A stretch of 64,000 bases of DNA from Escherichia phage vB_EcoM_G37-3 (MK327941.1); one strand, 5' to 3'; shown: positions 3,763 through 33,705, counted from the stretch's first letter. Translations and numbers: made by a program. Notes: generated from the sequence alone by a model not told the origin.

Positions 3763-5586
3763 TTATGACGCCATCCATGCCTTCCTCATGTCTGAATCTT
3801 CGCTATAGAGCAAATCGAATAGCTCTTTATAGTTTTCCGGTAACGTGATGATCTCCATGACAGGATCGTTGATCACGCGATGATAATCTGATTCTGTGAG
3901 CGATGCTAAACCTTTGATATATCGAATGTTGTAACCTTTGATATTATCTCGGTCGTTCTCGAAATCTTCTAGGTCATAATACCATCGAACATCATCACCT
4001 TTCTTTGGTTCCGCAATGATAATAGGTGTTTTGATAAACCGGATTCGTCCATCTTCGAACAATTCAGGCCAACGTGCAAAGAAAGAGATCAGACTAGGTT
4101 TAATAGACCCGATCCCGTCAGTATCAGCGTCGGTCATAATCGCAATATTTTTGTATTGCATAACTTCCAATGCATCAACACCAAATTGCAAGCCAGTGAT
4201 CGCCATGATGTTAAAAATTTCGGCGTTCTTAACGATCTTTGCCTCCGGTTGTTCCCACGTTGTAAGAGTTTTGCCTCGCAACGGGAAACCTCCATGTAAA
4301 TCTTGATCACGTACAGAGATCAGATAGTTGATCGCGGAATCACCTTCCGTCAAAAACAGGGTAGTTTCTGCGTCAGTTCCAATAAGGTTAGCTTTAACGT
4401 GTTTTGCCACCTTAGCCCGTTTCGCTGCCTTTGCTGCCTTAGTCGCTGCCGCTTTATCTGCTGCCTCTTTGCGTGCCAGGACTACAGCAATAATAGGCAT
4501 GATAATGTTTTCTTTCTTAGCAATGACTTTAGCCAGCTTTTTAAAATCAAGATCAATATGACGCTTGATATCACCAGTCGGGTTAGTCAAGCGTTCTTTT
4601 GTCTGTGAATCAAAACGAAGGTTAGGCAATTCACGAACAATAAGAATACAGGTCAATCCAGACTTAACCGCAGCTTTAGTAACATCAACCTTATATTCTT
4701 TCTTGATTCGTTTTACAATCTCTTCACAAAGATCATCTGTCACATAATCAACGTGTGTTCCCCCGTTTTTGGTAAACAGACCGTTAGCAAAGGATACTGA
4801 TTTAAAACCTTCTCCCTCGACCGCAGGAACTAGGGCAAGTGAAAAGTTTTTATCTTCAATGACAAACGGATCATCATTGTATAGTTTAGCATAATCCTTG
4901 AACTTGCTGGTTATCTTTTTGCCATTAAACTTAAACGTGATCTTAGGAAAGATTACACTCAATGAATACATTCGATCGCAAATCACATCTGAAATTTCTT
5001 GTGACATGATCATACCTTCAAAATGATCGAAATCGGGGCAGAACGTAACCTTAGTTCCTTTCAGTTTTGACGGCTTAGATGACCAGCTAATATTTTCTGC
5101 ACCATTGGTACATTGAACGGTCAGTTCATTCTCTCCGTCACACGTCACACCAGTAAACCAGGACGAGAAAAATGATGTGAGCGCGCTTCCGATCCCATTC
5201 ATACCCATAGTAACACGATTTGTATCATCAAAGTTAGACCCTGCTTTAGCTCGTGTCCATGCAGCAACTGGTTGTGGAATCTGTTTCCCTTCTGGCGTCG
5301 TAACAATATGTTGCGGAATACCGCGACCATTATCTGTTACTGACACAATGTTATCTTTTATATCCACACTAATAACATTAGCGTACTCAAAATTCGTGCG
5401 GATCGCCTCGTCTACAGAGTTGTCGATAATTTCATCAATAATTTTAACTAGACCAGGAACATATGACACTTTGGTCCATTTTCCAAATAGGAAACGATTA
5501 TGTGATTCATAAGTCGTTGACCCGATGTACATTGAAGGTCTCTTAAGACAGTGAGCGCGATCATCTAACAGTAAAAATTCACTCAT
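3763..5586 (-). CDS. 39: DNA topoisomerase II large subunit gp39, unsplit (covers T4 gp39 plus gp60)
   Basis: 607-aa ORF; GHKL ATPase motifs IIDNSVDE, DNGRGIP, GGTHVDY, TOPRIM-like LFLTEGDSA; T4 has this split into genes 39 and 60. Confidence 0.9.
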   Translation of the reverse strand: MSEFLLLDDRAHCLKRPSMYIGSTTYESHNRFLFGKWTKVSYVPGLVKIIDEIIDNSVDEAIRTNFEYANVISVDIKDNIVSVTDNGRGIPQHIVTTPEGKQIPQPVAAWTRAKAGSNFDDTNRVTMGMNGIGSALTSFFSSWFTGVTCDGENELTVQCTNGAENISWSSKPSKLKGTKVTFCPDFDHFEGMIMSQEISDVICDRMYSLSVIFPKITFKFNGKKITSKFKDYAKLYNDDPFVIEDKNFSLALVPAVEGEGFKSVSFANGLFTKNGGTHVDYVTDDLCEEIVKRIKKEYKVDVTKAAVKSGLTCILIVRELPNLRFDSQTKERLTNPTGDIKRHIDLDFKKLAKVIAKKENIIMPIIAVVLARKEAADKAAATKAAKAAKRAKVAKHVKANLIGTDAETTLFLTEGDSAINYLISVRDQDLHGGFPLRGKTLTTWEQPEAKIVKNAEIFNIMAITGLQFGVDALEVMQYKNIAIMTDADTDGIGSIKPSLISFFARWPELFEDGRIRFIKTPIIIAEPKKGDDVRWYYDLEDFENDRDNIKGYNIRYIKGLASLTESDYHRVINDPVMEIITLPENYKELFDLLYSEDSDMRKAWMAS

Positions 5587-5685
5587 TATTAAACCTCTTC
5601 ATAACATAACCATAACTTACTGCAACCGCCACAAAGACGGCTGCAACAATCATATTAAAAATTGAGTGATTGTCAAGTATATGAC

Positions 5686-5859
5686 TCATGACACGCGCAC
5701 ATTTTTATCATAGTACCCGCCATTAATCCCGCGCGGGGCAGTTAATCCCTGTTTGCATTCTTTACCACATTCAGGGCATTCTGCCTTTTCACGTTCGGAA
5801 ATTTTGCGGATTTTCTGAAATTGACCGTGTTCTTCACAAGAATAATCATATAATGGCAT
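5686..5859 (-). CDS. FmdB-family zinc-ribbon protein (57 aa)
   Basis: MPLYDYSCEEHGQF...CPECG pattern; ATG at 5859 behind AAAGGGGA RBS, just after dexA stop. Confidence 0.5.
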   Translation of the reverse strand: MPLYDYSCEEHGQFQKIRKISEREKAECPECGKECKQGLTAPRGINGGYYDKNVRVS

Positions 5860-5860
5860 A

Positions 5861-6529
5861 TTATCCCCTTTGTTTCTTAACTGAATTTGGATCTGGATTT
5901 TCTGGCAAGTCTTCCAGACCCATAGCATAACGTTGTGCATAGATTAGCATAAGAATATCGCGAGCGCAATCATGAATTGCATCATGTGCGATAAAACCAT
6001 CTAGCGTACCCATTGGTAACGGACACTCACACATCCCGCGATGCATCAATGTACGCTCAATGGCGGTGCGAACATCTCGGATATTCCAGAATCGCACAGG
6101 TTCAAGGCTGAACGTCTCTCGTGTATTGTGTGCACGGCGGATCATATCAACTAGTAACGGAATATCAAACGCATTACCGCGTGACCACAATACGGATTTA
6201 ACCGGATCTACTCCTACGGCTTCACAGAATGCGTTAAAACGCGCTAAACCTTCTTTAGTTGATACTTCCGTACCATTTGTGATTAATTGCTTTCTCATGC
6301 CTTCTGAGGCGGTATTCTTCCACCATTCAACCACACCATGATCAAACACCCTTACACCTTTCTGAGAAGGAATATCAAATTTTACCAGAAAGGAATTGTC
6401 AACCAGTTCTTTAAATGTAGGTGGATTGTGCGGATCTTCTTTAAATCCGATTGCCGCCATATTGATAACCGCCCCATCAGGCGGATAACCTAAACTTTCA
6501 AAGTCAATCATTAAATCCACTGGAAGCAT
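5861..6529 (-). CDS. dexA: exonuclease A DexA (DEDD 3'-5' exonuclease)
   Basis: N-terminus MLPVDLMIDFESLGY matches T4 DexA; ATG at 6529 behind GGAGGA RBS; the first 24 codons of the track ORF are rejected as extension. Confidence 0.85.
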   Translation of the reverse strand: MLPVDLMIDFESLGYPPDGAVINMAAIGFKEDPHNPPTFKELVDNSFLVKFDIPSQKGVRVFDHGVVEWWKNTASEGMRKQLITNGTEVSTKEGLARFNAFCEAVGVDPVKSVLWSRGNAFDIPLLVDMIRRAHNTRETFSLEPVRFWNIRDVRTAIERTLMHRGMCECPLPMGTLDGFIAHDAIHDCARDILMLIYAQRYAMGLEDLPENPDPNSVKKQRG

Positions 6530-6530
6530 T

Positions 6531-6773
6531 TTAAATATCCTCCGCGATATGCCGGAACAACTCCAGATCGTTTTTATCCAGAATGAAACCGCTACAATCA
6601 ATAATCCCGTTACCGTAATTATCGGTTAACAGTCGTTCCGTTGCCATGTATGCGCGTACTTTGTTGTTAAAATTCATTACATGTTGTGCATAGTCACAAT
6701 GAATCTTTTGACGGTTCCACGCGACAATTGATTGTAGATGTATTACATTAGCCACATTATTAATAACAACCAT
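6531..6773 (-). CDS. hypothetical protein (80 aa)
   Basis: ATG at 6773 behind GAGGG RBS; track start is GTG without RBS. Confidence 0.45.
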   Translation of the reverse strand: MVVINNVANVIHLQSIVAWNRQKIHCDYAQHVMNFNNKVRAYMATERLLTDNYGNGIIDCSGFILDKNDLELFRHIAEDI

Positions 6774-6774
6774 A

Positions 6775-6951
6775 TCAAAACCCTCGCTTAGTGGAATGTT
6801 CTGGCATTTTATTGATACATTCAGCTTGGTAGTCACGAGATTTTTTTGACGAATTAAGAGCTACAGCCAAAAAATCCTGTAACTGTTCGTTTGTCATTTT
6901 TGGCTTACACCGCGTATCTAAACCCTTCGTTCTTCTAGCTTCATTAGCCAT
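6775..6951 (-). CDS. small protein (58 aa), tandem paralog A
   Basis: Below ORF-track cutoff; C-terminus YQAECINKMPEHSTKRGF; TGATATG junction to next gene. Confidence 0.4.
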   Translation of the reverse strand: MANEARRTKGLDTRCKPKMTNEQLQDFLAVALNSSKKSRDYQAECINKMPEHSTKRGF

Positions 6952-6952
6952 A

Positions 6953-7120
6953 TCAAAAACCTCGCTTAGTGAAATGCTCGATCATTTTATTGATACATGC
7001 AGCTTCACTATCGCCGGACACGTTCCAGCCGTATAGACCCCATCTAAAGCACATGGTAACAGTTCCATTGTGACGGCTTACCGTCACATCATTAAATTCT
7101 GGGATACTTCGCATAATCAT
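6953..7120 (-). CDS. small protein (55 aa), tandem paralog B
   Basis: Below ORF-track cutoff; C-terminus AACINKMIEHFTKRGF shared with paralog A; GAGGA RBS overlaps dda stop. Confidence 0.4.
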   Translation of the reverse strand: MIMRSIPEFNDVTVSRHNGTVTMCFRWGLYGWNVSGDSEAACINKMIEHFTKRGF

Positions 7121-7130
7121 AATAATTTCC

Positions 7131-8522
7131 TCAAATATAGTCTACTCGATACCTCGCACGGGTAACACCCACATATAATAACTGCATTGCCAATTCAAAG
7201 TCAACATTGTCTGTACACATGCAAGGAGTATACAGGAACACGCGGTCTACGCTGATCCCTTGTGACTTATGAATGGTGCAAGCTGGTAATGCTTTTACAT
7301 TCAAGAACATACGCTTCATCGTCCAGAATGAATCCCAATCTGGTTTAAATTTTGGATTCTCTTTCTTCATTTCGCGATATTGTCCGGCGACCGTATTCAG
7401 ATAGATAGAGAAAATGTTCTTCTGACGTTGTTCTGTCAGAATGTTGATTTCTACCAAATCCGGTTTATCTGTAGTGATTCCGACTGCATCTAAACCGACT
7501 TTCTGATTTAGGATTTCTTTGTCTTCGTCATCATCGACGCTTTCCACTTTCAGAGTATAGCCTAAAACTGGTTGCGGATCTACCCCCGTGCAACGTAATG
7601 TAAATTCACGCGGGATGACCTCTTTAACTCGGATCATCTCACCATTGTTAAAAATAACATTGGGAATCTTCTTCCCGCGTTCATCTCGCAGATATTCGAT
7701 CAATGGTTCCTGAGTAACCAGAATTTCATCTACAATCACTGGTTCATCGGTGTTATAAACGCGCTTACGTACAATTTCATTGAGTTTTTCGACGCTCTTG
7801 TTAGTGTAGGCCAGAATACGGTTTTCTAGAAGGTCTTCCGGCGTTTTAACGGTTTCGAAATAATGCTTCATAAACTCCGGCAGAGTTGAGCTATGGAATA
7901 CACCCTCGTTACCGCACTGCTTTTCGAATACCCATTTACCATTACGGACAGCGGTCGCCACATCAATTATTGGCGCATTAGATCGTTTAATCTCTGTAAG
8001 TTCTACATTCTGAAACCTTTCATCGGTGAAGAAAGGAGAGATCGACGTTGCACCGCTCGGATCAACTGGTCGTAACTGGTACAGATCACCCACGGCAATA
8101 ATAACAATTCGACCGTTGATACTCTTCATGAGAATATCAAATAGTTTCTTATCGACCATACTCGCTTCATCAACAATGATGATCTGAACATCATCTAGCT
8201 TAGGAGTATCTTTTTGTTCAAATACTTGAGTATCTTCATAGTTGGTCGGGTTAAGACGCAATAAAGCATGTAAAGTAAATGCTTGACGACCTACCGCCTT
8301 ACTCAAAACTTTTTTAGCCTGGTGGGTAGGCGTTGCCAAAACCACACCAGTTACACCACGGCGGACCATTTCCTGAACAATGAATTTCATCATTGCGGTT
8401 TTACCAGTACCCGCCGCACCCCGGACAGTTGTATGCTTCTTTTGTTCAATGCGTTTCATTAGAACATCAAAAGCATGTTTTTGCCCGTCTGTTAACATAT
8501 CGAAAGTTAATACTCTGCTCAT
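7131..8522 (-). CDS. dda: Dda DNA helicase (SF1)
   Basis: 463-aa ORF; Walker A GAAGTGKT; N-terminus aligns with T4 Dda. Confidence 0.9.
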   Translation of the reverse strand: MSRVLTFDMLTDGQKHAFDVLMKRIEQKKHTTVRGAAGTGKTAMMKFIVQEMVRRGVTGVVLATPTHQAKKVLSKAVGRQAFTLHALLRLNPTNYEDTQVFEQKDTPKLDDVQIIIVDEASMVDKKLFDILMKSINGRIVIIAVGDLYQLRPVDPSGATSISPFFTDERFQNVELTEIKRSNAPIIDVATAVRNGKWVFEKQCGNEGVFHSSTLPEFMKHYFETVKTPEDLLENRILAYTNKSVEKLNEIVRKRVYNTDEPVIVDEILVTQEPLIEYLRDERGKKIPNVIFNNGEMIRVKEVIPREFTLRCTGVDPQPVLGYTLKVESVDDDEDKEILNQKVGLDAVGITTDKPDLVEINILTEQRQKNIFSIYLNTVAGQYREMKKENPKFKPDWDSFWTMKRMFLNVKALPACTIHKSQGISVDRVFLYTPCMCTDNVDFELAMQLLYVGVTRARYRVDYI

Positions 8523-8836
8523 TATCCTAAAATCCTCACCTTGCGAACACAGATAGTATTGAGTTCTCGCCGTACCCGTTCTTTTTCATATTCAGGAATT
8601 TTATATTCGATACCATCCCGAACAATTTCAGAAGACCGGATTATGCCAAATTTTCGTTTAGGTACAACCTTGTATTTCGGTTCACCCGCCAATAGACTCT
8701 CACAATAATCTATCTGATCACACATTGACGCTAACGCAGCATCATGTGTTTCGCAAGTTAGGACGCGACCCTTCGCGTCCACTGAGTATTGAAAGAATCC
8801 GTCTTTATCACGATAACATACAGCAAATACATGCAT
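8522..8836 (-). CDS. hypothetical protein (104 aa)
   Basis: ORF whose stop overlaps dda start. Confidence 0.5.
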   Translation of the reverse strand: MHVFAVCYRDKDGFFQYSVDAKGRVLTCETHDAALASMCDQIDYCESLLAGEPKYKVVPKRKFGIIRSSEIVRDGIEYKIPEYEKERVRRELNTICVRKVRILG

Positions 8837-9591
8837 TATAAACCTACCTTCGCTTTCATCAATTCAATCCACGACGCATCAATCGGAAGCCCGTATTTCA
8901 CGCGTTCTTTTTGTGCTGGCGTTAAGTTCTCATACTTAGAAAGAGATTCAATCAAAACGCTGGTATATTTTAGCACGATTTCGGTATTGTTTGCAATAGC
9001 CTTAAGTTTTTCTTCTTTCTTGTTGATTTCGCTAAGGGCTTGCTTGAGATCTGCAATTTTCTGATAACGTTCTTCCATACGGAAGAGAGTATTTTTAATC
9101 GCTCGCTCGGCTGCCTCTGCTTTCTCCGGTTCGTTGTGCTTTTTATGGCGCTCGATTGCTAATTTCTTTTCTTCGATTGCCATTTCCTGATTTTTGATGC
9201 GATTCTCGTTAAGTTCGATCCACTCGATGTACTTCGCACGTAGGGCAATTTCATCATCAGAAAGTTTACCGTTAGTTCCTAGTTCCTGGATCTCTTTAAG
9301 AGATTCGATAGTGTGATTGCCACGGAAAGAATTATATTTCAGTTTAACCGGAATTACATTGCCATCAACATATCCCAGATTGCAATCAATGCGCTCTAAG
9401 GAGAGTCCGTCATCACCTTCACCGAAAGCCTCACCGGAATAGACGCAATGAGTCTGTCGGTAAATGTTACGCACAGTGACTAAGCTCATAGAGAAGTCTT
9501 TGTTGCGACGTGAAGCACCAGCCATGATAGAGTTCAGACGGAAAACAACCAGAGCCAATTCTTCGTTAGATTTAAAAGCAAACAGTTTCAT
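8836..9591 (-). CDS. hypothetical coiled-coil protein (251 aa); at the T4 srd position
   Basis: ATG at 9591 behind AAGGAGAATCAATT leader; Srd assignment is positional only. Confidence 0.45.
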   Translation of the reverse strand: MKLFAFKSNEELALVVFRLNSIMAGASRRNKDFSMSLVTVRNIYRQTHCVYSGEAFGEGDDGLSLERIDCNLGYVDGNVIPVKLKYNSFRGNHTIESLKEIQELGTNGKLSDDEIALRAKYIEWIELNENRIKNQEMAIEEKKLAIERHKKHNEPEKAEAAERAIKNTLFRMEERYQKIADLKQALSEINKKEEKLKAIANNTEIVLKYTSVLIESLSKYENLTPAQKERVKYGLPIDASWIELMKAKVGL

Positions 9592-28001: not shown

Positions 28002-28043
28002 AGTCTCTTCCTCTCTTCGTTTTCGATGCTCTCACTATATCAC

Positions 28044-28069
28044 AGAAAAATAAAAAGGGAAACCCCTTT
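28044..28069 (-). terminator. intrinsic terminator
   Basis: Minus strand AAAGGGGTTTCCCTTT hairpin followed by TTATTTTTC. Confidence 0.5.
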
Positions 28070-28092
28070 CAGAGTCTCCCTTATAAAAGCCA

Positions 28093-28381: not shown

Positions 28382-28615
28382 TTATTTTACCTCTGGGATA
28401 TAATCAATTATTAAAGAAAATTCATCTTCTGATACATTATAGCTATGTGAGATTGTACCCGTCAAGACCTCAAGATCCGGTGATTTGATATTGCACGGAT
28501 CGATAATCACCGGAACGCCGCAATCTCTCAAAAATAATTTGGCGAAATACGGCACGAGGTCAGTTTCAAACTCTGCTTCTTCCAGCAAACGGGAAATGTT
28601 AATTTTCAATCTCAT
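28382..28615 (-). CDS. hypothetical protein (77 aa)
   Basis: ORF overlapping the 3' end of gp55. Confidence 0.4.
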
Positions 28616-29132
28616 AAAATTGGTCCAGGCTAGGCAATTCCTCAGTCAATACATCTTCAACCTTTGGCGCTTTCGGTTTATTGACCGATTCCTCGTAGTT
28701 GTTGATTTTATCGTAAATGTCCTGTATGAATGCCTCATCAGCAATCTGGCACATATCAGCGTCGCGTTCGTCATATACATGATGCACAAAATATTTGTAT
28801 TTTGCGGCTGTCGCTGTTCTCTCTTTTTTAATGCGCTGTACAAAAGCATTAAAGCACGCTTGCGTGATGTAAGCATGAGGATTTTTATACTTTGTCTCGT
28901 CAAAATTAATCAAACCCTTGACCGCCGCTTCGATTCCGTCGTCGATCATTTCTTCGCGCCATGTTTGACTATAACCAGAAAAGTTAAAACGACGTGATAG
29001 ATTTTTAGAGATTTGCATAATTGCTAGGCCGATTTGATCGCTCATTGGAACTTGCCGACCTTCTGCTGCAATTCGTTGTTTCCAACGGCAAATTTCTTCG
29101 TAAAGCTCTTTATTGTTTACATAATCAGACAC
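28599..29132 (-). CDS. 55: late-transcription sigma factor gp55 (GTG start)
   Basis: 177 aa; [44 protein letters not shown] match T4 gp55; first codon reads GTG behind GAGGGTG RBS. Confidence 0.85.
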
Positions 29133-29172
29133 TTCGCACCCTCGCTATTATTTAGGAAATAACCCTTTCGGG

Positions 29173-30642
29173 CTATTCCCCATTACCATTATACTTTCTT
29201 TGCTTAGTTATCCACACTCTAACCATCTCTACAGATTCGCCGTCAGACGGATCAAGAGTTTTTCCCTTTTTCTTCATGCGGTACTTAAATCCGTTAAATC
29301 TTGCATTCTCTTGCTCGTTAAAATCGAACATCTTTTTAAATGATTTTCGCCCTTTACGCTCACCACATTCTAGCGGAATCATTCGGTCTGTTATTACATT
29401 GGCATTAGGTAGAAACGTTTTTAGATAATCTACCAACGCCCAATCAGGAACATATAGATTAACATTCTCCTTGCTCTCGTTGTCTCTCAGGTTACAACGC
29501 AAACATAATTGAAATGCTGGTTCCAGATAATCAGACACATGACGCGCTTTCAAAAACTCATTTGTCGGGAGATCACAACTATTAGCAAGACCTTTTAAAA
29601 TATCAATCTCCCATCGTTGAGGGTTAAAGCTGAACATCACAGCAACATTTTTATGATGAATGTAAGAGTTAAGACCATAAGATCCGTAAGGTATCCGCTC
29701 ACCAATACCATTTGTACACGCTTCTCGGTCCCGATTCACGGTATAAATGAAGTCATCACCACATTCATTTTTAACCATATCAACAAGACGTTCAAAGGTA
29801 TTGTTTGTTTCTGACTGGTGACGCGACCAGCGTTCGGAGTCTGTCATAAGGATGATATTAACTCTATCTGTATTTTTATACTCTTTGAAATATAGTCTGG
29901 ATTCTAGCGCACTCGGAACAAAATCGCAATTTGCATAGTATCGTAGATACTTCCCACTATATGTATCAAAGAGATTTGCACATGCTATCGTAACCTTTTT
30001 AAAGTCTCCCCACGTACCGTGTTTGTTATCGTTCAAGAAAACAATTTTCGACCCATTCTTCCGGTGTCCTTCGTTATGTTTTACCATAACGTTGATTTTC
30101 TTCTCTAATAACGCCTCATAAAGCCCTCTAAGAGAAGAATCGATCATATCAGTACCATCCTTTGCACTTTCTATCTTTTCTTTGATAGCGGCCTTCTCAG
30201 AGTCTTTTAGAACTAAGTTCTGTAGGCATTCCGATTCGTCGGCGATTGGTTCGCAATGCTTCGTGATAAGTTCAAGATTAGACTTAAACGGATACTCATT
30301 AAATTCAACCAGTTGAGGAACTTCATCAATGTAAAGAGCATATTCACCAAACATTTTTGAACGTTCCATATTAGATAACGCTGTATGTGTAATGAATATC
30401 ACATCAGCACCGTCTTTAACTGATTGCATTATCGACGCTTGCACTGTCTTAAGGCTTCTTAGTCTTGTGCTATCAATCAAGACAGCACGACCGCCCATTC
30501 TTTTAAACTTATTGTAAGATTGTTCACTTAAAACACGAGATGGCGAAGCAATAACCGCTTTTTCTTTTGTCTCTAGGACGTGGGAAAGTATAGCATCAGT
30601 TTTCCCCGCCGCTGGCAATGCGATTAATGTTTCAATCTTCAT
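29173..30642 (-). CDS. P-loop NTPase with SF2-helicase-like N-terminal motifs, function unknown
   Basis: 489 aa; motif I LPAAGKT, Ia-like ASPSRVLSEQ, II-like YIDEVPQ; no clear motif VI; not at a T4 core position. Confidence 0.55.
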   Translation of the reverse strand: MKIETLIALPAAGKTDAILSHVLETKEKAVIASPSRVLSEQSYNKFKRMGGRAVLIDSTRLRSLKTVQASIMQSVKDGADVIFITHTALSNMERSKMFGEYALYIDEVPQLVEFNEYPFKSNLELITKHCEPIADESECLQNLVLKDSEKAAIKEKIESAKDGTDMIDSSLRGLYEALLEKKINVMVKHNEGHRKNGSKIVFLNDNKHGTWGDFKKVTIACANLFDTYSGKYLRYYANCDFVPSALESRLYFKEYKNTDRVNIILMTDSERWSRHQSETNNTFERLVDMVKNECGDDFIYTVNRDREACTNGIGERIPYGSYGLNSYIHHKNVAVMFSFNPQRWEIDILKGLANSCDLPTNEFLKARHVSDYLEPAFQLCLRCNLRDNESKENVNLYVPDWALVDYLKTFLPNANVITDRMIPLECGERKGRKSFKKMFDFNEQENARFNGFKYRMKKKGKTLDPSDGESVEMVRVWITKQRKYNGNGE

Positions 30643-30929
30643 TAGAAACCCTTACGTCGTGCTTTCTGGCATTTCTTGATCATTTTATCAGAAATTTCGC
30701 GCTTAGGTGCAATCTCTTTCACACCGAAAGCACTAATGCCAAATTCAGAGAGAATATATTCAACCAACAATTCACGCACACGCGCTTTACCGATATTCAC
30801 GCCGTTATTTTTCAGATATGTCTGGCCTTCGACTTGCATCAGATCTAAATCCGCGTCGGTAATATTGATTTCTTCCATGCGCCCAAATCGAGAGTAAACC
30901 ATGTGTGCGATTGCATTGTGTACTAACAT
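30642..30929 (-). CDS. hypothetical protein (95 aa)
   Basis: Internal ATG at 30929 behind GAGGA RBS; basic C-terminus. Confidence 0.45.
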   Translation of the reverse strand: MLVHNAIAHMVYSRFGRMEEINITDADLDLMQVEGQTYLKNNGVNIGKARVRELLVEYILSEFGISAFGVKEIAPKREISDKMIKKCQKARRKGF

Positions 30930-30950: not shown

Positions 30951-31109
30951 TTACTTAATGATACTTACTTTACCAGATCCGTGACAATGAGCGCAACACC
31001 CATCACCACGCAATCCTGTTCCGTTACAATGTTTACACTTCTTCAACGGTAAAGCCATTATAGCAAATAAAGCAATAATGAATACCGAAACTAAATTCTC
31101 AATAATCAT
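30951..31109 (-). CDS. small membrane-anchored zinc-ribbon peptide (52 aa)
   Basis: Below track cutoff; N-terminal hydrophobic helix then CKHCNGTG...CCAHCHGSG; start overlaps 3' end of nrdH. Confidence 0.35.
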   Translation of the reverse strand: MIIENLVSVFIIALFAIMALPLKKCKHCNGTGLRGDGCCAHCHGSGKVSIIK

Positions 31110-31368
31110 AAATCGCCCTCAGTTCTTTATAGCCTCCAATGTGCTCGTTGTCAATGAATATCTGGGGGTATACAAACCGGAGGCTCTTTGAGTTCAGCCT
31201 CCCAGCCAGTTCTTCAATCATATCACGGTCGGGAATAATGTCAACCCCGACCTGCTTGAATACTGGTTTAAGTGTATACGGAATACCCAGGTCATCCAGT
31301 AGCTTCATTGCACTAATACAACCATAACAATGATAAGCCTCTTTCGGTATGCCGTATATCTCGATCAT
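31099..31368 (-). CDS. nrdH: glutaredoxin-like protein NrdH
   Basis: 89 aa; redox motif CYGC near N-terminus; next to nrdG/nrdD. Confidence 0.7.
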   Translation of the reverse strand: MIEIYGIPKEAYHCYGCISAMKLLDDLGIPYTLKPVFKQVGVDIIPDRDMIEELAGRLNSKSLRFVYPQIFIDNEHIGGYKELRAIYDY

Positions 31369-31841
31369 TTCTCAGCCTTTAATCTTTCTAGTTCTTCTTC
31401 CAGTTCCTTGATCCGTTGGTCACGTTCAAAGTCACGCTGTAGCTTAGTGGCAAATACTCGCTTAAACTGATTGTAATCATCGATTTTAAACACTTCTTCT
31501 TCGCCATAGCGACGCACAGAAACTTCGTAGTTATTGAAGAATTGTTGCATCATTGCTTCGGATGATAGTTCTGCTGATACTACTTTAAAATATTGATCTT
31601 CGGTAGGTGAAAACCAATTGCAAGCATAAAGATAAACCTTTTCATTGTCTGGACACTGGTAAGCCTTACCATCGATTTCAATCACAGAAACATATTCAGG
31701 TATACTAGATGAATCAATAGCTAAGACTTTAAACGCACGGTCCCCGATAAACTCGGAGATCACACGATTCGCATCACTGGTTGCAAATGCTTTACGCGCT
31801 TGTTCGTTTTTCCACTGATAGGTCATACCAACAACAAACAT
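31365..31841 (-). CDS. paralog-family protein P1 (one beta-domain plus C-terminal helix)
   Basis: GMTYQWKNEQARKAF...AFKVLAIDS...IEIDGKAY...QYFKVV; ATG at 31841 behind GAGGT RBS. Confidence 0.55.
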   Translation of the reverse strand: MFVVGMTYQWKNEQARKAFATSDANRVISEFIGDRAFKVLAIDSSSIPEYVSVIEIDGKAYQCPDNEKVYLYACNWFSPTEDQYFKVVSAELSSEAMMQQFFNNYEVSVRRYGEEEVFKIDDYNQFKRVFATKLQRDFERDQRIKELEEELERLKAEK

Positions 31842-31842
31842 A

Positions 31843-32667
31843 TTACCAACCTCGCTCTTTACCAATCAAAAATTCAACTTCACGACGTTTAATGTCTTCT
31901 TGAAGGTCTTTAATCTTCTGGCGATCTTGCATGATTTCATCCATCTTGTCAAGTGCCGCAATGAAATCATCGAAACGTTCAAAGGTTTTACCTTCATTTG
32001 CTTCGCCAAATTTAACCATTGTCAGGCCGTAACGACTACTAAACAGACGTTTCAACTGTCCAACGATTTTAGAATCAGTGGTTATAATTTCCAATTCTTC
32101 TACTTCACGAAAGAATTTTCTATCAGAATCAATAAACCAGCTAGTTCCTTTATGGTCTCTATCTTCGGTTGCGCTCATTAGAGTATGGTCTTTACCATCA
32201 ATTTCAATTACATCAATTTGCCCACATGGACTAACATTTTTAACAGTAAAAGGTCTATAATTTATTGCTCGTGCAATAACATAATTAAGGTTAGATACGT
32301 TTTCAGCATAATGGCAGAAGTCGGTCATAGCATTCGCATCTTTCCAAGTATAAGTTTTACCAACTTCCCATTTCTGGGGAACTTCTTCAACTTCACGAAA
32401 GAATTTTCTATCGAATGGACTAAAGAAATATGTTGCAGTCCAAATGTCTTTTCCTGTAGCAGTTTTCGCCGTATGATAAACACCGTCTAGCTCTATTGCA
32501 TTAATCCAACCGTTACCCTCGATCTCGATGATGGTAAATGGCTTGTCACCAATAGCTGCACTAATATCGCTGTTAAGTGGAGAAAGAACACCTTCTCCGT
32601 TAGTAATAAACTCAGTTTTAGCGTTTTCATCTTTCCAGGTGTAAGTTTTACCAATTTCCCATTTCAT
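31843..32667 (-). CDS. paralog-family protein P2 (two tandem domains)
   Basis: Two copies of W-E-[IV]-GKTYTWKD...PFT[IV]...IEIDGK...DRKFFREVEE. Confidence 0.6.
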   Translation of the reverse strand: MKWEIGKTYTWKDENAKTEFITNGEGVLSPLNSDISAAIGDKPFTIIEIEGNGWINAIELDGVYHTAKTATGKDIWTATYFFSPFDRKFFREVEEVPQKWEVGKTYTWKDANAMTDFCHYAENVSNLNYVIARAINYRPFTVKNVSPCGQIDVIEIDGKDHTLMSATEDRDHKGTSWFIDSDRKFFREVEELEIITTDSKIVGQLKRLFSSRYGLTMVKFGEANEGKTFERFDDFIAALDKMDEIMQDRQKIKDLQEDIKRREVEFLIGKERGW

Positions 32668-32679
32668 AATATATTCCCC

Positions 32680-33165
32680 TTAACCGATTTTATCAAGTTC
32701 GTTTAATGCTTTCTCTGCTTCCTGTATAGCTTGCACTCTTTCCGGCATTTTGTCAAGAAAATCTTTCAACTCTTCAAAACTGGAGATATGACGCAAGGCA
32801 TTAGCACCGATAGCCGCATGTGATTTGCATTCAAAGCGGATTTTATAATTATCCATAGCCAATTTGAGAAGGTCTATTAGATCATATTCATGACCAGGCA
32901 ATAAAACTTCTTTGAAGCACGCTCGGTCGCCATCGGAAAACCATATATTATCACCAACATCGATAGAACTAATATAATCCCCTTCGTGATTATAGATTGA
33001 ACGTACATTACCCCAACGGTCTACCGTAGCGACAGTAAATGGTTTATCTAGATATGTAAACACACCATCAATATTAGGTTTTTGTTCGTAACGCCAACAA
33101 TCACGCAAAATGCGCTTTTCGTCCTCACCAACCAACTTATATGTCTTCCCTTCTTCCCATTTCAT
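32680..33165 (-). CDS. paralog-family protein P3
   Basis: MKWEEGKTYK...PFTVATVD...; C-terminal LKDFLDKMPERV helix; ATG at 33165. Confidence 0.55.
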   Translation of the reverse strand: MKWEEGKTYKLVGEDEKRILRDCWRYEQKPNIDGVFTYLDKPFTVATVDRWGNVRSIYNHEGDYISSIDVGDNIWFSDGDRACFKEVLLPGHEYDLIDLLKLAMDNYKIRFECKSHAAIGANALRHISSFEELKDFLDKMPERVQAIQEAEKALNELDKIG

Positions 33166-33169
33166 AATA

Positions 33170-33695
33170 TCATCTCTCATTTTTGATACGTGATTCTAAT
33201 TGGATCATACGGTCGCGCGTTTGCTTGTATTCTCGAATAGCACCGATCCGGCTAGGCATACCATCAAGCACGCTCTTAATCCCTTCTATGGTAGTGATTT
33301 TAGCAATGCTATTATGTAACCCCATCTTATCGATCAACTGAATGTCGTAGGCTTCCATAAGCAGACCCAGACGTTCTAAAGTTAGGTCTTCTTTTTTCTT
33401 CCGATTCTGGAATCTTAGGTTCAATAGTAACTTCGGTAAAGAAACGGCGCTCACCTGACCAAAACCACACACCGGAACAACCAATAGGGGATTCTTTTAG
33501 CGTCATAGAGTCGTAACCACTGCCGATAATAGTAATTTCTCTAACATCACCATCATCGTCAATGTCTTCTACCATAAAAGGGCGACCAGCCAACAAGTCA
33601 ACAATACATCTGTTAATAGACGACGAAAATTTAGTCAGTTCGGCTTTCGACGCTTCGCATTCAATCTTGTAAGTTTTACCAACTTCCCATTCCAT
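33170..33695 (-). pseudogene. paralog-family member P4 interrupted by a frameshift
   Basis: N-terminal domain in frame of 33327..33704, C-terminal helix (GMPSRIGAI) in frame of 33170..33484; frames meet at an A6 run near 33392..33397. Confidence 0.45.
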
Positions 33696-33705
33696 AATAA
33701 TCACC

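Follow-up and report, generated by a model that had tools for sequence, protein, structure and literature searches.

We analysed a 64,000-nucleotide stretch of Escherichia phage vB_EcoM_G37-3 (MK327941.1; hereafter the window), in which a 489-residue protein with helicase-like motifs is encoded in a run of genes lying wholly on the minus strand (Table 1). In the direction of transcription the order is nrdG, four paralogous ORFs, nrdH, a 52-residue peptide, a 55.2 homologue, the 489-residue gene, gene 55, a-gt.5, a-gt.4 and gene 47; the helicase gene lies in an early-type run of DNA and nucleotide-metabolism genes. The protein is 100% identical to RB49ORF044c, a "hypothetical protein" of RB49 and other Krischvirus genomes, and the gene has 99.3-99.4% DNA identity to its counterparts in these genomes; judged by sequence, the source phage is an RB49-like Krischvirus of the T4 type. 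Ten codons differ from the RB49 copy and all ten differences are synonymous; the gene is under purifying selection. Over the full length of the protein there is a match to phrog_2467, a PHROGs family of unknown function (E 8.8e-175, residues 1-489 on positions 8-502 of 502). "Hypothetical protein" has been the usual label of the gene for twenty years, and the GenBank record of phage W115 names it "putative helicase".

Table 1. Coordinates in the window of the helicase-like gene, its parts and its surroundings; residue numbers refer to the 489-residue protein.
Feature	Coordinates	Strand	Description
SF2 helicase-like gene	29173..30642	minus	ATG start, 489 aa; identical to RB49ORF044c; phrog_2467
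Motif I / Walker A	30598..30621	minus	residues 8-15, ALPAAGKT
Motif Ia	30517..30549	minus	residues 32-42, ASPSRVLSEQS; family consensus AxPTxxLxxQ
Motif Ib-like	30376..30396	minus	residues 83-89, FITHTAL
Motif II / Walker B	30316..30336	minus	residues 103-109, LYIDEVP
Insertion domain, Arch-like position	29998..30315	minus	residues 110-215, between motifs II and III
Candidate motif III	29971..29994	minus	residues 217-224, VTIACANL; on model strand 216-221
Candidate motif IV	29725..29751	minus	residues 298-306, FIYTVNRDR
Candidate motif V	29662..29691	minus	residues 318-327, PYGSYGLNSY
Candidate motif Va	29620..29634	minus	residues 337-341, FSFNP
Candidate motif VI, arginine fingers	29485..29523	minus	residues 374-386, EPAFQLCLRCNLR
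Basic helical C-terminal tail	29176..29361	minus	residues 428-489; pI 9.9 over residues 420-489
Hairpin past the helicase stop	29140..29175	minus	AGCCC-GAAA-GGGTT, GNRA loop
Gene 55 (late sigma factor)	28599..29132	minus	phrog_234, E 5e-63; immediately downstream of helicase
55.2 homologue	30642..30929	minus	95 aa from ATG; Pfam DUF7570, E 1.4e-28; RB49 annotation gp55.2
52-aa peptide	30951..31109	minus	hydrophobic N-terminal helix, CxxC-x10-CxxC zinc-ribbon-like; phrog_3931; = RB49ORF046c
nrdH	31099..31368	minus
Sigma-70-like match (consensus only)	31217..31244	minus	inside nrdH; TTGACA, 16-nt spacer, TATGAT; 11/12, upstream TG
Four paralogous ORFs	31365..33704	minus	166, 274, 166 and 125 aa; RB49ORF048c-051c region
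Gap in place of RB49ORF040c	28002..28092		92 bp
Dda homologue	7134..8510	minus	46% identity to T4 Dda, full length

An earlier note on this DNA had placed the gene between gene 55 and nrdH and had named no comparable gene in T4. Both points are borne out: in T4 the slot from 55.2 to 55 holds only the 87-residue 55.1, and T4 does not carry the helicase. The basic 95-residue protein and the 52-residue zinc-ribbon peptide that the note described as following the gene do exist, but in the direction of transcription both lie upstream of it. The former is the 55.2 homologue, whose reading frame gives 101 residues from a TTG and 95 from the ATG at 30929, the start used in the RB49 annotation; its TAA stop overlaps the ATG of the helicase gene (TAATG). 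In T4, 55.2 is transcribed early and inhibits the topoisomerase I of E. coli (PMC4396842). The 52-residue peptide, which overlaps the end of nrdH, gave only weak, sub-threshold Pfam matches (DnaJ CXXCXGXG and Gad1). No late-promoter TATAAATA was found near the helicase locus. The sigma-70-like match within nrdH could, judged by its agreement with the consensus, drive the run formed by the 52-residue peptide, the 55.2 homologue and the helicase gene. Just past the helicase stop, a hairpin is followed by ATTTCC, about 10 nt ahead of the GTG that starts gene 55. The hairpin might serve in weak termination or in RNA stability; it was not called by the terminator scan.

By tblastn, 243 phage records match the protein, 237 of them over at least 80% of its length. 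Gene 55 is found in 1880 records, placing the helicase in about 13% of T4-type genomes (243/1880; about one in eight), which falls short of T4-type core or quasi-core status and implies that the basic replication scheme of these phages can do without the helicase. Copies in Krischvirus are 98-100% identical, and identity drops to 34-42% in the next tier, which comprises phages of Erwinia, Proteus, Morganella, Serratia, Cronobacter, Enterobacter, Citrobacter and Klebsiella, RB43-like phages and T4-type phages of Aeromonas. Among the T4-type phage records of Aeromonas, all 77 that have gene 55 also have the helicase. Gene 55 is a conserved positional anchor, and the slot just upstream of it is kept for the helicase in RB49, the Aeromonas phages 31 and CC2, the Proteus phage Pm5461 and the Erwinia phage Cronus. 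In RB43 the nrdH-55.2-helicase block is relocated beside gene 34, with the 55.2-helicase pair intact. A 55.2 homologue directly precedes the helicase in the source phage, RB43, Pm5461 and CC2, and the helicase gene is usually start/stop-coupled to it in T4-type phages; the upstream neighbour is annotated as DprA-like in phage 31 and is an unrelated small ORF in Cronus. When 185,579 genomes of bacteria and archaea were scanned, only two loci came up, both resembling contigs of T4-type phages, and therefore no bacterial gene context could be used.

Two simple ideas about the gene were considered. Replacement of Dda was rejected, as the window contains a full-length Dda homologue. The idea that the helicase marks phages with unmodified cytosine is weakened by Cronus, a member of the Tevenvirinae with an alpha-glucosyltransferase gene, which carries the helicase too.

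To describe conservation we used a close alignment of 23 phage homologues (32-74% identity; 65 invariant columns) and a profile search run against 1.84 billion cluster representatives, which gave 1323 relatives at E <= 0.001, 759 of them at E <= 1e-10. A distant set was formed by 168 of these relatives, with identities down to less than 20%; high conservation of the key residues was also seen in 69 short forms at 16-44% identity. The open reading frame and its N-terminal motifs are exactly as first noted (LPAAGKT at 9-15, ASPSRVLSEQ at 32-41 and YIDEVPQ at 104-110), and the Walker motifs are kept in the homologues. P10, G13, K14 and T15 of motif I and L103, D106, E107 and P109 of motif II are invariant among the 23, and in the 168 relatives G13 stands at 99%, K14 at 100%, T15 at 92%, D106 and E107 each at 100% and P109 at 89%. 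The conservation of the five catalytic positions G13, K14, T15, D106 and E107 (92-100%) indicates that the N-terminal motifs are not due to chance. Between them, motif Ia has A32, S33, L38, Q41 and S42 invariant in the close alignment (L38 96% in the 168), and the Ib-like block has F83, T85, H86 and L89 (T85 92%, H86 79%).

The earlier note could not find motifs III to VI, and here its reading did not hold: candidate III, IV, V, Va and VI blocks are present and conserved. In candidate motif III (VTIAxAN in the homologues) T218 is invariant and N223 is kept in at least 90% of the 23, with A222 at 90% and N223 at 71% of the distant relatives. Candidate motif IV (FIYTxNxxR) has Y300, N303 and R306 invariant, N303 reaching 97% in the 168; candidate motif V (HGLNxY) has G323, N325 and Y327 invariant, the first two at 100% in the 168; and candidate motif Va (SxNP) has S338 and N340 invariant, N340 at 93%. 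In candidate motif VI (EPAFQLCxRxxxR), P375, F377, Q378, L379, C380, R382 and R386 do not vary among the 23 homologues, and Q378, R382 and R386 are each found in 100% of the 168 relatives. Its spacing, Q-x3-R-x3-R, departs from the canonical Q-x2-G-R-x2-R. Further along the chain V398 (95%) and D400 (93%) are also conserved in the distant set, and the sole invariant cysteines of the close alignment are C130 and C380. The suggestion that the protein might be a divergent or inactivated helicase, or another NTPase, thus stands for the divergent helicase and fails for the inactivated one, as catalytic residues that are 90-100% conserved across 168 relatives make an inactive enzyme very unlikely.

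An AlphaFold2 model built from the 23-sequence alignment (mean pLDDT 87.2, pTM 0.76) has two RecA-like domains. With the invariant GKT and DE residues, these two domains and the conserved residues of motifs IV-VI (93-100%), the protein can safely be assigned to helicase superfamily 2 (SF2). When the model was compared with the PDB by Foldseek, XPD ranked top (3crw, E 5.7e-11, and 3crv), followed by the DinG proteins of S. aureus and F. magna, CasDinG and Rad3, with TM-scores that, for this one predicted structure, were only 0.45-0.51. The XPD/DinG-type structures gave the clearly higher scores, with about 50-100 extra aligned residues; DEAD-box structures aligned over a single RecA domain of about 140 residues. 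In XPD structures the Arch domain sits topologically between motifs II and III. An insertion at this position is universal in the family described here (96-136 residues, median 114, in 168 members), and in the model the additional aligned residues would fit this insertion as a counterpart of Arch. XPD also carries a 4Fe-4S domain between motifs Ia and II, which forms the strand-separating wedge and pore. The corresponding segment of the phage family is just 54-79 residues long and contains four or more cysteines in one of 168 members, leaving no 4Fe-4S domain; as the wedge and pore domain is absent, the mechanism of unwinding and its polarity could differ from those of XPD. CasDinG and S. aureus DinG, accepted members of the XPD/DinG group, are also without the Fe-S cluster.

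DEAD was the sole Pfam family above its cut-off (27.4 bits against 26), and matched residues 11-130; among the 69 distant short forms, 49 match DEAD and 29 match ResIII. Neither DEAD_2 nor Helicase_C_2 matched the protein at E <= 1 or was among the 25 commonest families in the 69 relatives, and there was no Pfam Helicase_C match to the protein. Searches of PDB sequences with the single protein or with a profile of close homologues gave nothing useful. With the broad family profile, PriA (E 4.8e-6), Mfd, DDX42, reverse gyrase, UvrB and XPB were reached in their RecA1 domain. Among the 60 matches listed from these PDB sequence searches there was no DinG or XPD. NCBIfam and PADLOC gave nothing meaningful for the phage protein; the PADLOC model typeIV_DinG weakly matched a few long relatives around their P-loop. 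Because the profiles reach only the generic N-terminal SF2 domain, the likeness to XPD and DinG is drawn from one predicted structure and its TM-scores, and we describe it as an architectural likeness in the model, outside sequence-level membership of the XPD/DinG Pfam families. There are other differences from XPD, Rad3 and DinG, which are 550-900 residues long against 489 here, have DEAH as motif II against DEVP and space motif VI differently; the phage protein shares no sequence-level match and no Fe-S domain with them.

Beyond the two RecA-like domains, the basic C-terminal tail is modelled as helices at residues 435-438, 443-458 and 468-484, with E445 and W477 invariant in the 23 homologues. 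Some short relatives give sub-threshold helix-turn-helix (HTH) matches at their extreme C-terminus (residues 438-478 in P0079 and 432-474 in P0096). These tails occupy the same place as the T4-type tail, with no homology detected between them, the hhalign alignment stopping at residue 417; and Pfam HTH families gave no match in the phage tail, for which the one hint is an insignificant alignment to IclR (E 0.68). The family as a whole falls into two size classes, of about 450-575 and 700-900 residues. Long-class members have, C-terminal to the helicase, a conserved module of about 300 residues that resembles AEP primase-polymerases; it carries the motifs VLDFENGE, PRFRAVxPT and SGLDWSK and then a helical end. 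The tail of the module has weak matches to PriCT_1 (8 of 30 members, best E 1.8e-4) and RepB_primase_C, and the UniRef name of one of its homologues is PriCT-1 domain protein. One fusion is found in a cultured phage, the Agrobacterium jumbo phage Atu_ph07, where gp191 (762 residues; 4908..7196 of its locus) matches the helicase at E 1.9e-35 and the AEP module at E 9.6e-27. This protein is labelled "hypothetical protein", and in its AEP module the usual position of the motif II histidine appears as PRFRAV / YRVVVG. Another long relative, P0043, lies on a short contig with uninformative context. No AEP module was found within the 64-kb window. A stand-alone AEP-like protein (P0207, 329 residues; locus 5875..8990 of the metagenome contig ERZ25039468:contig_17668) is divergently encoded beside genes for a LigD_N phosphoesterase and an ATP-dependent ligase; this single case hints that the module may supply the polymerase of a split, LigD-like set for end joining.

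The resemblance to helicases has been noted before. In the 2006 study of Nolan et al., RB49ORF044c was listed as matching DEAD/DEAH in Pfam at E 0.069 (PMC1524935). Kazlauskas et al. in 2018 described some AEP primases of the All3500 family as carrying fused domains with a remote similarity to SF2 helicases, and grouped pVOGs 1685 and 9714, from some T4-like phages and SPbeta, as the "VOG1685/9714-like helicase", a predicted novel helicase family of viruses and plasmids (PMC5862659). This family fits, matched by its description only, both the T4-type proteins and their primase-fused relatives; the fusions described there are primase-first (Prim+zf-CHC2+helicase), whereas the relatives found here are mostly helicase-first, with C-terminal AEP and PriCT-like parts. 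The IS-excision enhancer IEE is likewise a fusion of AEP and SF2 helicase-like domains, in the opposite order; its AEP-SF2 pair acts jointly on DNA ends and primers, and its helicase domain has been aligned with RadD (PMC9943667). No functional study of the gene was found in literature searches covering its ORF names, the helicases of Krischvirus and XPD/DinG proteins in phages.

We favour the reading that the protein is an active SF2 motor that serves as an accessory DNA helicase in replication, recombination or repair of the phage, and give this a probability of about 0.6. We infer its DNA substrate, polarity, time of expression and pathway from the observations above and from likeness to known helicases. 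The two RecA-like domains would bind single-stranded DNA across their top and hold ATP in the cleft between K14/T15, D106/E107 and the arginine fingers R382/R386; hydrolysis would drive the protein along the strand, while the inserted domain may help to grip the duplex or to part its strands, in the manner of XPD and DinG. These helicases translocate 5' to 3', and by analogy the phage protein possibly does so as well. It would probably be made early, together with the homologue of the topoisomerase I inhibitor 55.2, and would act in addition to gp41 (SF4), Dda (SF1B) and UvsW (SF2), which occur in the same virus group and are candidates for overlapping roles. Several points weigh against this reading: the TM-scores of only 0.45-0.51 and the missing sequence match to the XPD/DinG families, the absent Fe-S wedge, the departure of motif VI from the canonical spacing, the Dda homologue that the phage already has, and the presence of the gene in only about 13% of T4-type genomes. 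There are also many SF2 proteins, complete in their motifs, that translocate but do not unwind.

The alternatives differ in what the motor would work on and to what end. It might instead initiate replication, the tail binding a specific DNA site or a partner while the motor opens the DNA and a primase is recruited, in the manner of the herpesvirus origin-binding protein UL9 or of the primase-helicase initiators of plasmids and mobile elements; we hold this to be unlikely. The fusion of relatives to an AEP primase-polymerase with a PriCT-like tail, the HTH matches in P0079 and P0096 and the basic, helical tail of the phage protein all point in this direction, as does the report that pVOG9714 members are most similar to UL9 (PMC5862659). 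UL9 (PF02399, Herpes_ori_bp) joins an SF2 helicase to a part at the C-terminus that binds DNA, and its Pfam family weakly matches 2 of the 69 relatives and P0113. It does not match the phage protein itself, whose tail is without detectable homology to the HTH tails and without a Pfam HTH match, and the window has no AEP module for such an initiator. A translocase or remodeller that strips proteins or R-loops from the DNA of phage or host, for example at conflicts between replication and transcription under supercoiling altered by 55.2, is a little less probable again: the accessory domains typical of remodellers or of Mfd are absent, and the helicases of DinG/XPD type gave the clearly higher scores and alignments about 100 residues longer.

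A role in the arms race with the host, as a counter-defence or exclusion factor related to CasDinG, Hna or DdmD, seems quite improbable. Neither the phage protein nor its relatives had a significant match in PADLOC, no PDB sequence match linked it to Hna, and no nuclease or other effector domain was found; its position and sequence are stable between T4-type genera that lie far apart, all 77 Aeromonas records included, which is unlike a rapidly turning-over arms-race gene. We consider an RNA helicase of the DEAD-box type, working on transcripts of the phage or the host, very unlikely; the DEAD match above the Pfam cut-off and the DEAD-box proteins among the PDB profile matches might speak for it. 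The Pfam match is limited to the generic RecA1 domain, the structures of DEAD-box proteins cover one RecA domain, and motifs II (DEVP), III (CAN) and VI (QLCxRxxxR) are not the DEAD-box signatures (Q motif, D-E-A-D, S-A-T, H-R-x-G-R-x-G-R). With just 8 residues ahead of the P-loop a Q motif could not fit, and the fusion partners of the relatives are DNA primase-polymerases. An inactivated helicase fold retained as a scaffold had as its sole point that motifs III-VI had not been seen at first, and with every catalytic residue so conserved we regard it as barely credible.

T4 is the textbook model of phage replication, with three well-studied helicases, gp41, Dda and UvsW. A fourth helicase of different structure, conserved in a constant position in phages of the Krischvirus and Pseudotevenvirus groups and of Aeromonas, Proteus, Serratia and Erwinia, would add to this set, and the assignment of a complete XPD/DinG-like motor offers annotators a name and experimenters a clear hypothesis. 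The primase-polymerase fusion of the relatives provides a second lead on function, and XPD-like helicases working without the Fe-S domain are of mechanistic interest. No general concept is changed, as earlier work had already pointed to the likeness with helicases (PMC1524935, PMC5862659). More speculatively, and in our judgement improbably, the proteins could form a distinct SF2 family with an Arch-like insertion and without Fe-S, ancestrally the partner of an AEP primase-polymerase when mobile elements start or restart their DNA synthesis; the stand-alone copy would then be a fourth replication helicase for many T4-type phages, among them all those of Aeromonas in the collection, maybe a site-specific initiator through its basic tail and 55.2. 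If true, this would mean a route of replication initiation or restart beyond the T4 paradigm.

Two further observations concern the outer parts of the gene run. Between a-gt.4 and gene 47, RB49 has RB49ORF040c (555 bp), a homing-endonuclease-like gene for an HNH/AP2-domain endonuclease, which is missing from the source phage and replaced there by a short gap; the source phage is thus not RB49 itself. The interval between nrdH and nrdG is a tandem array of paralogues; its four adjacent ORFs share an N-terminal module that starts with W(E/K)xGKTY and of which the 274-residue ORF carries two copies.
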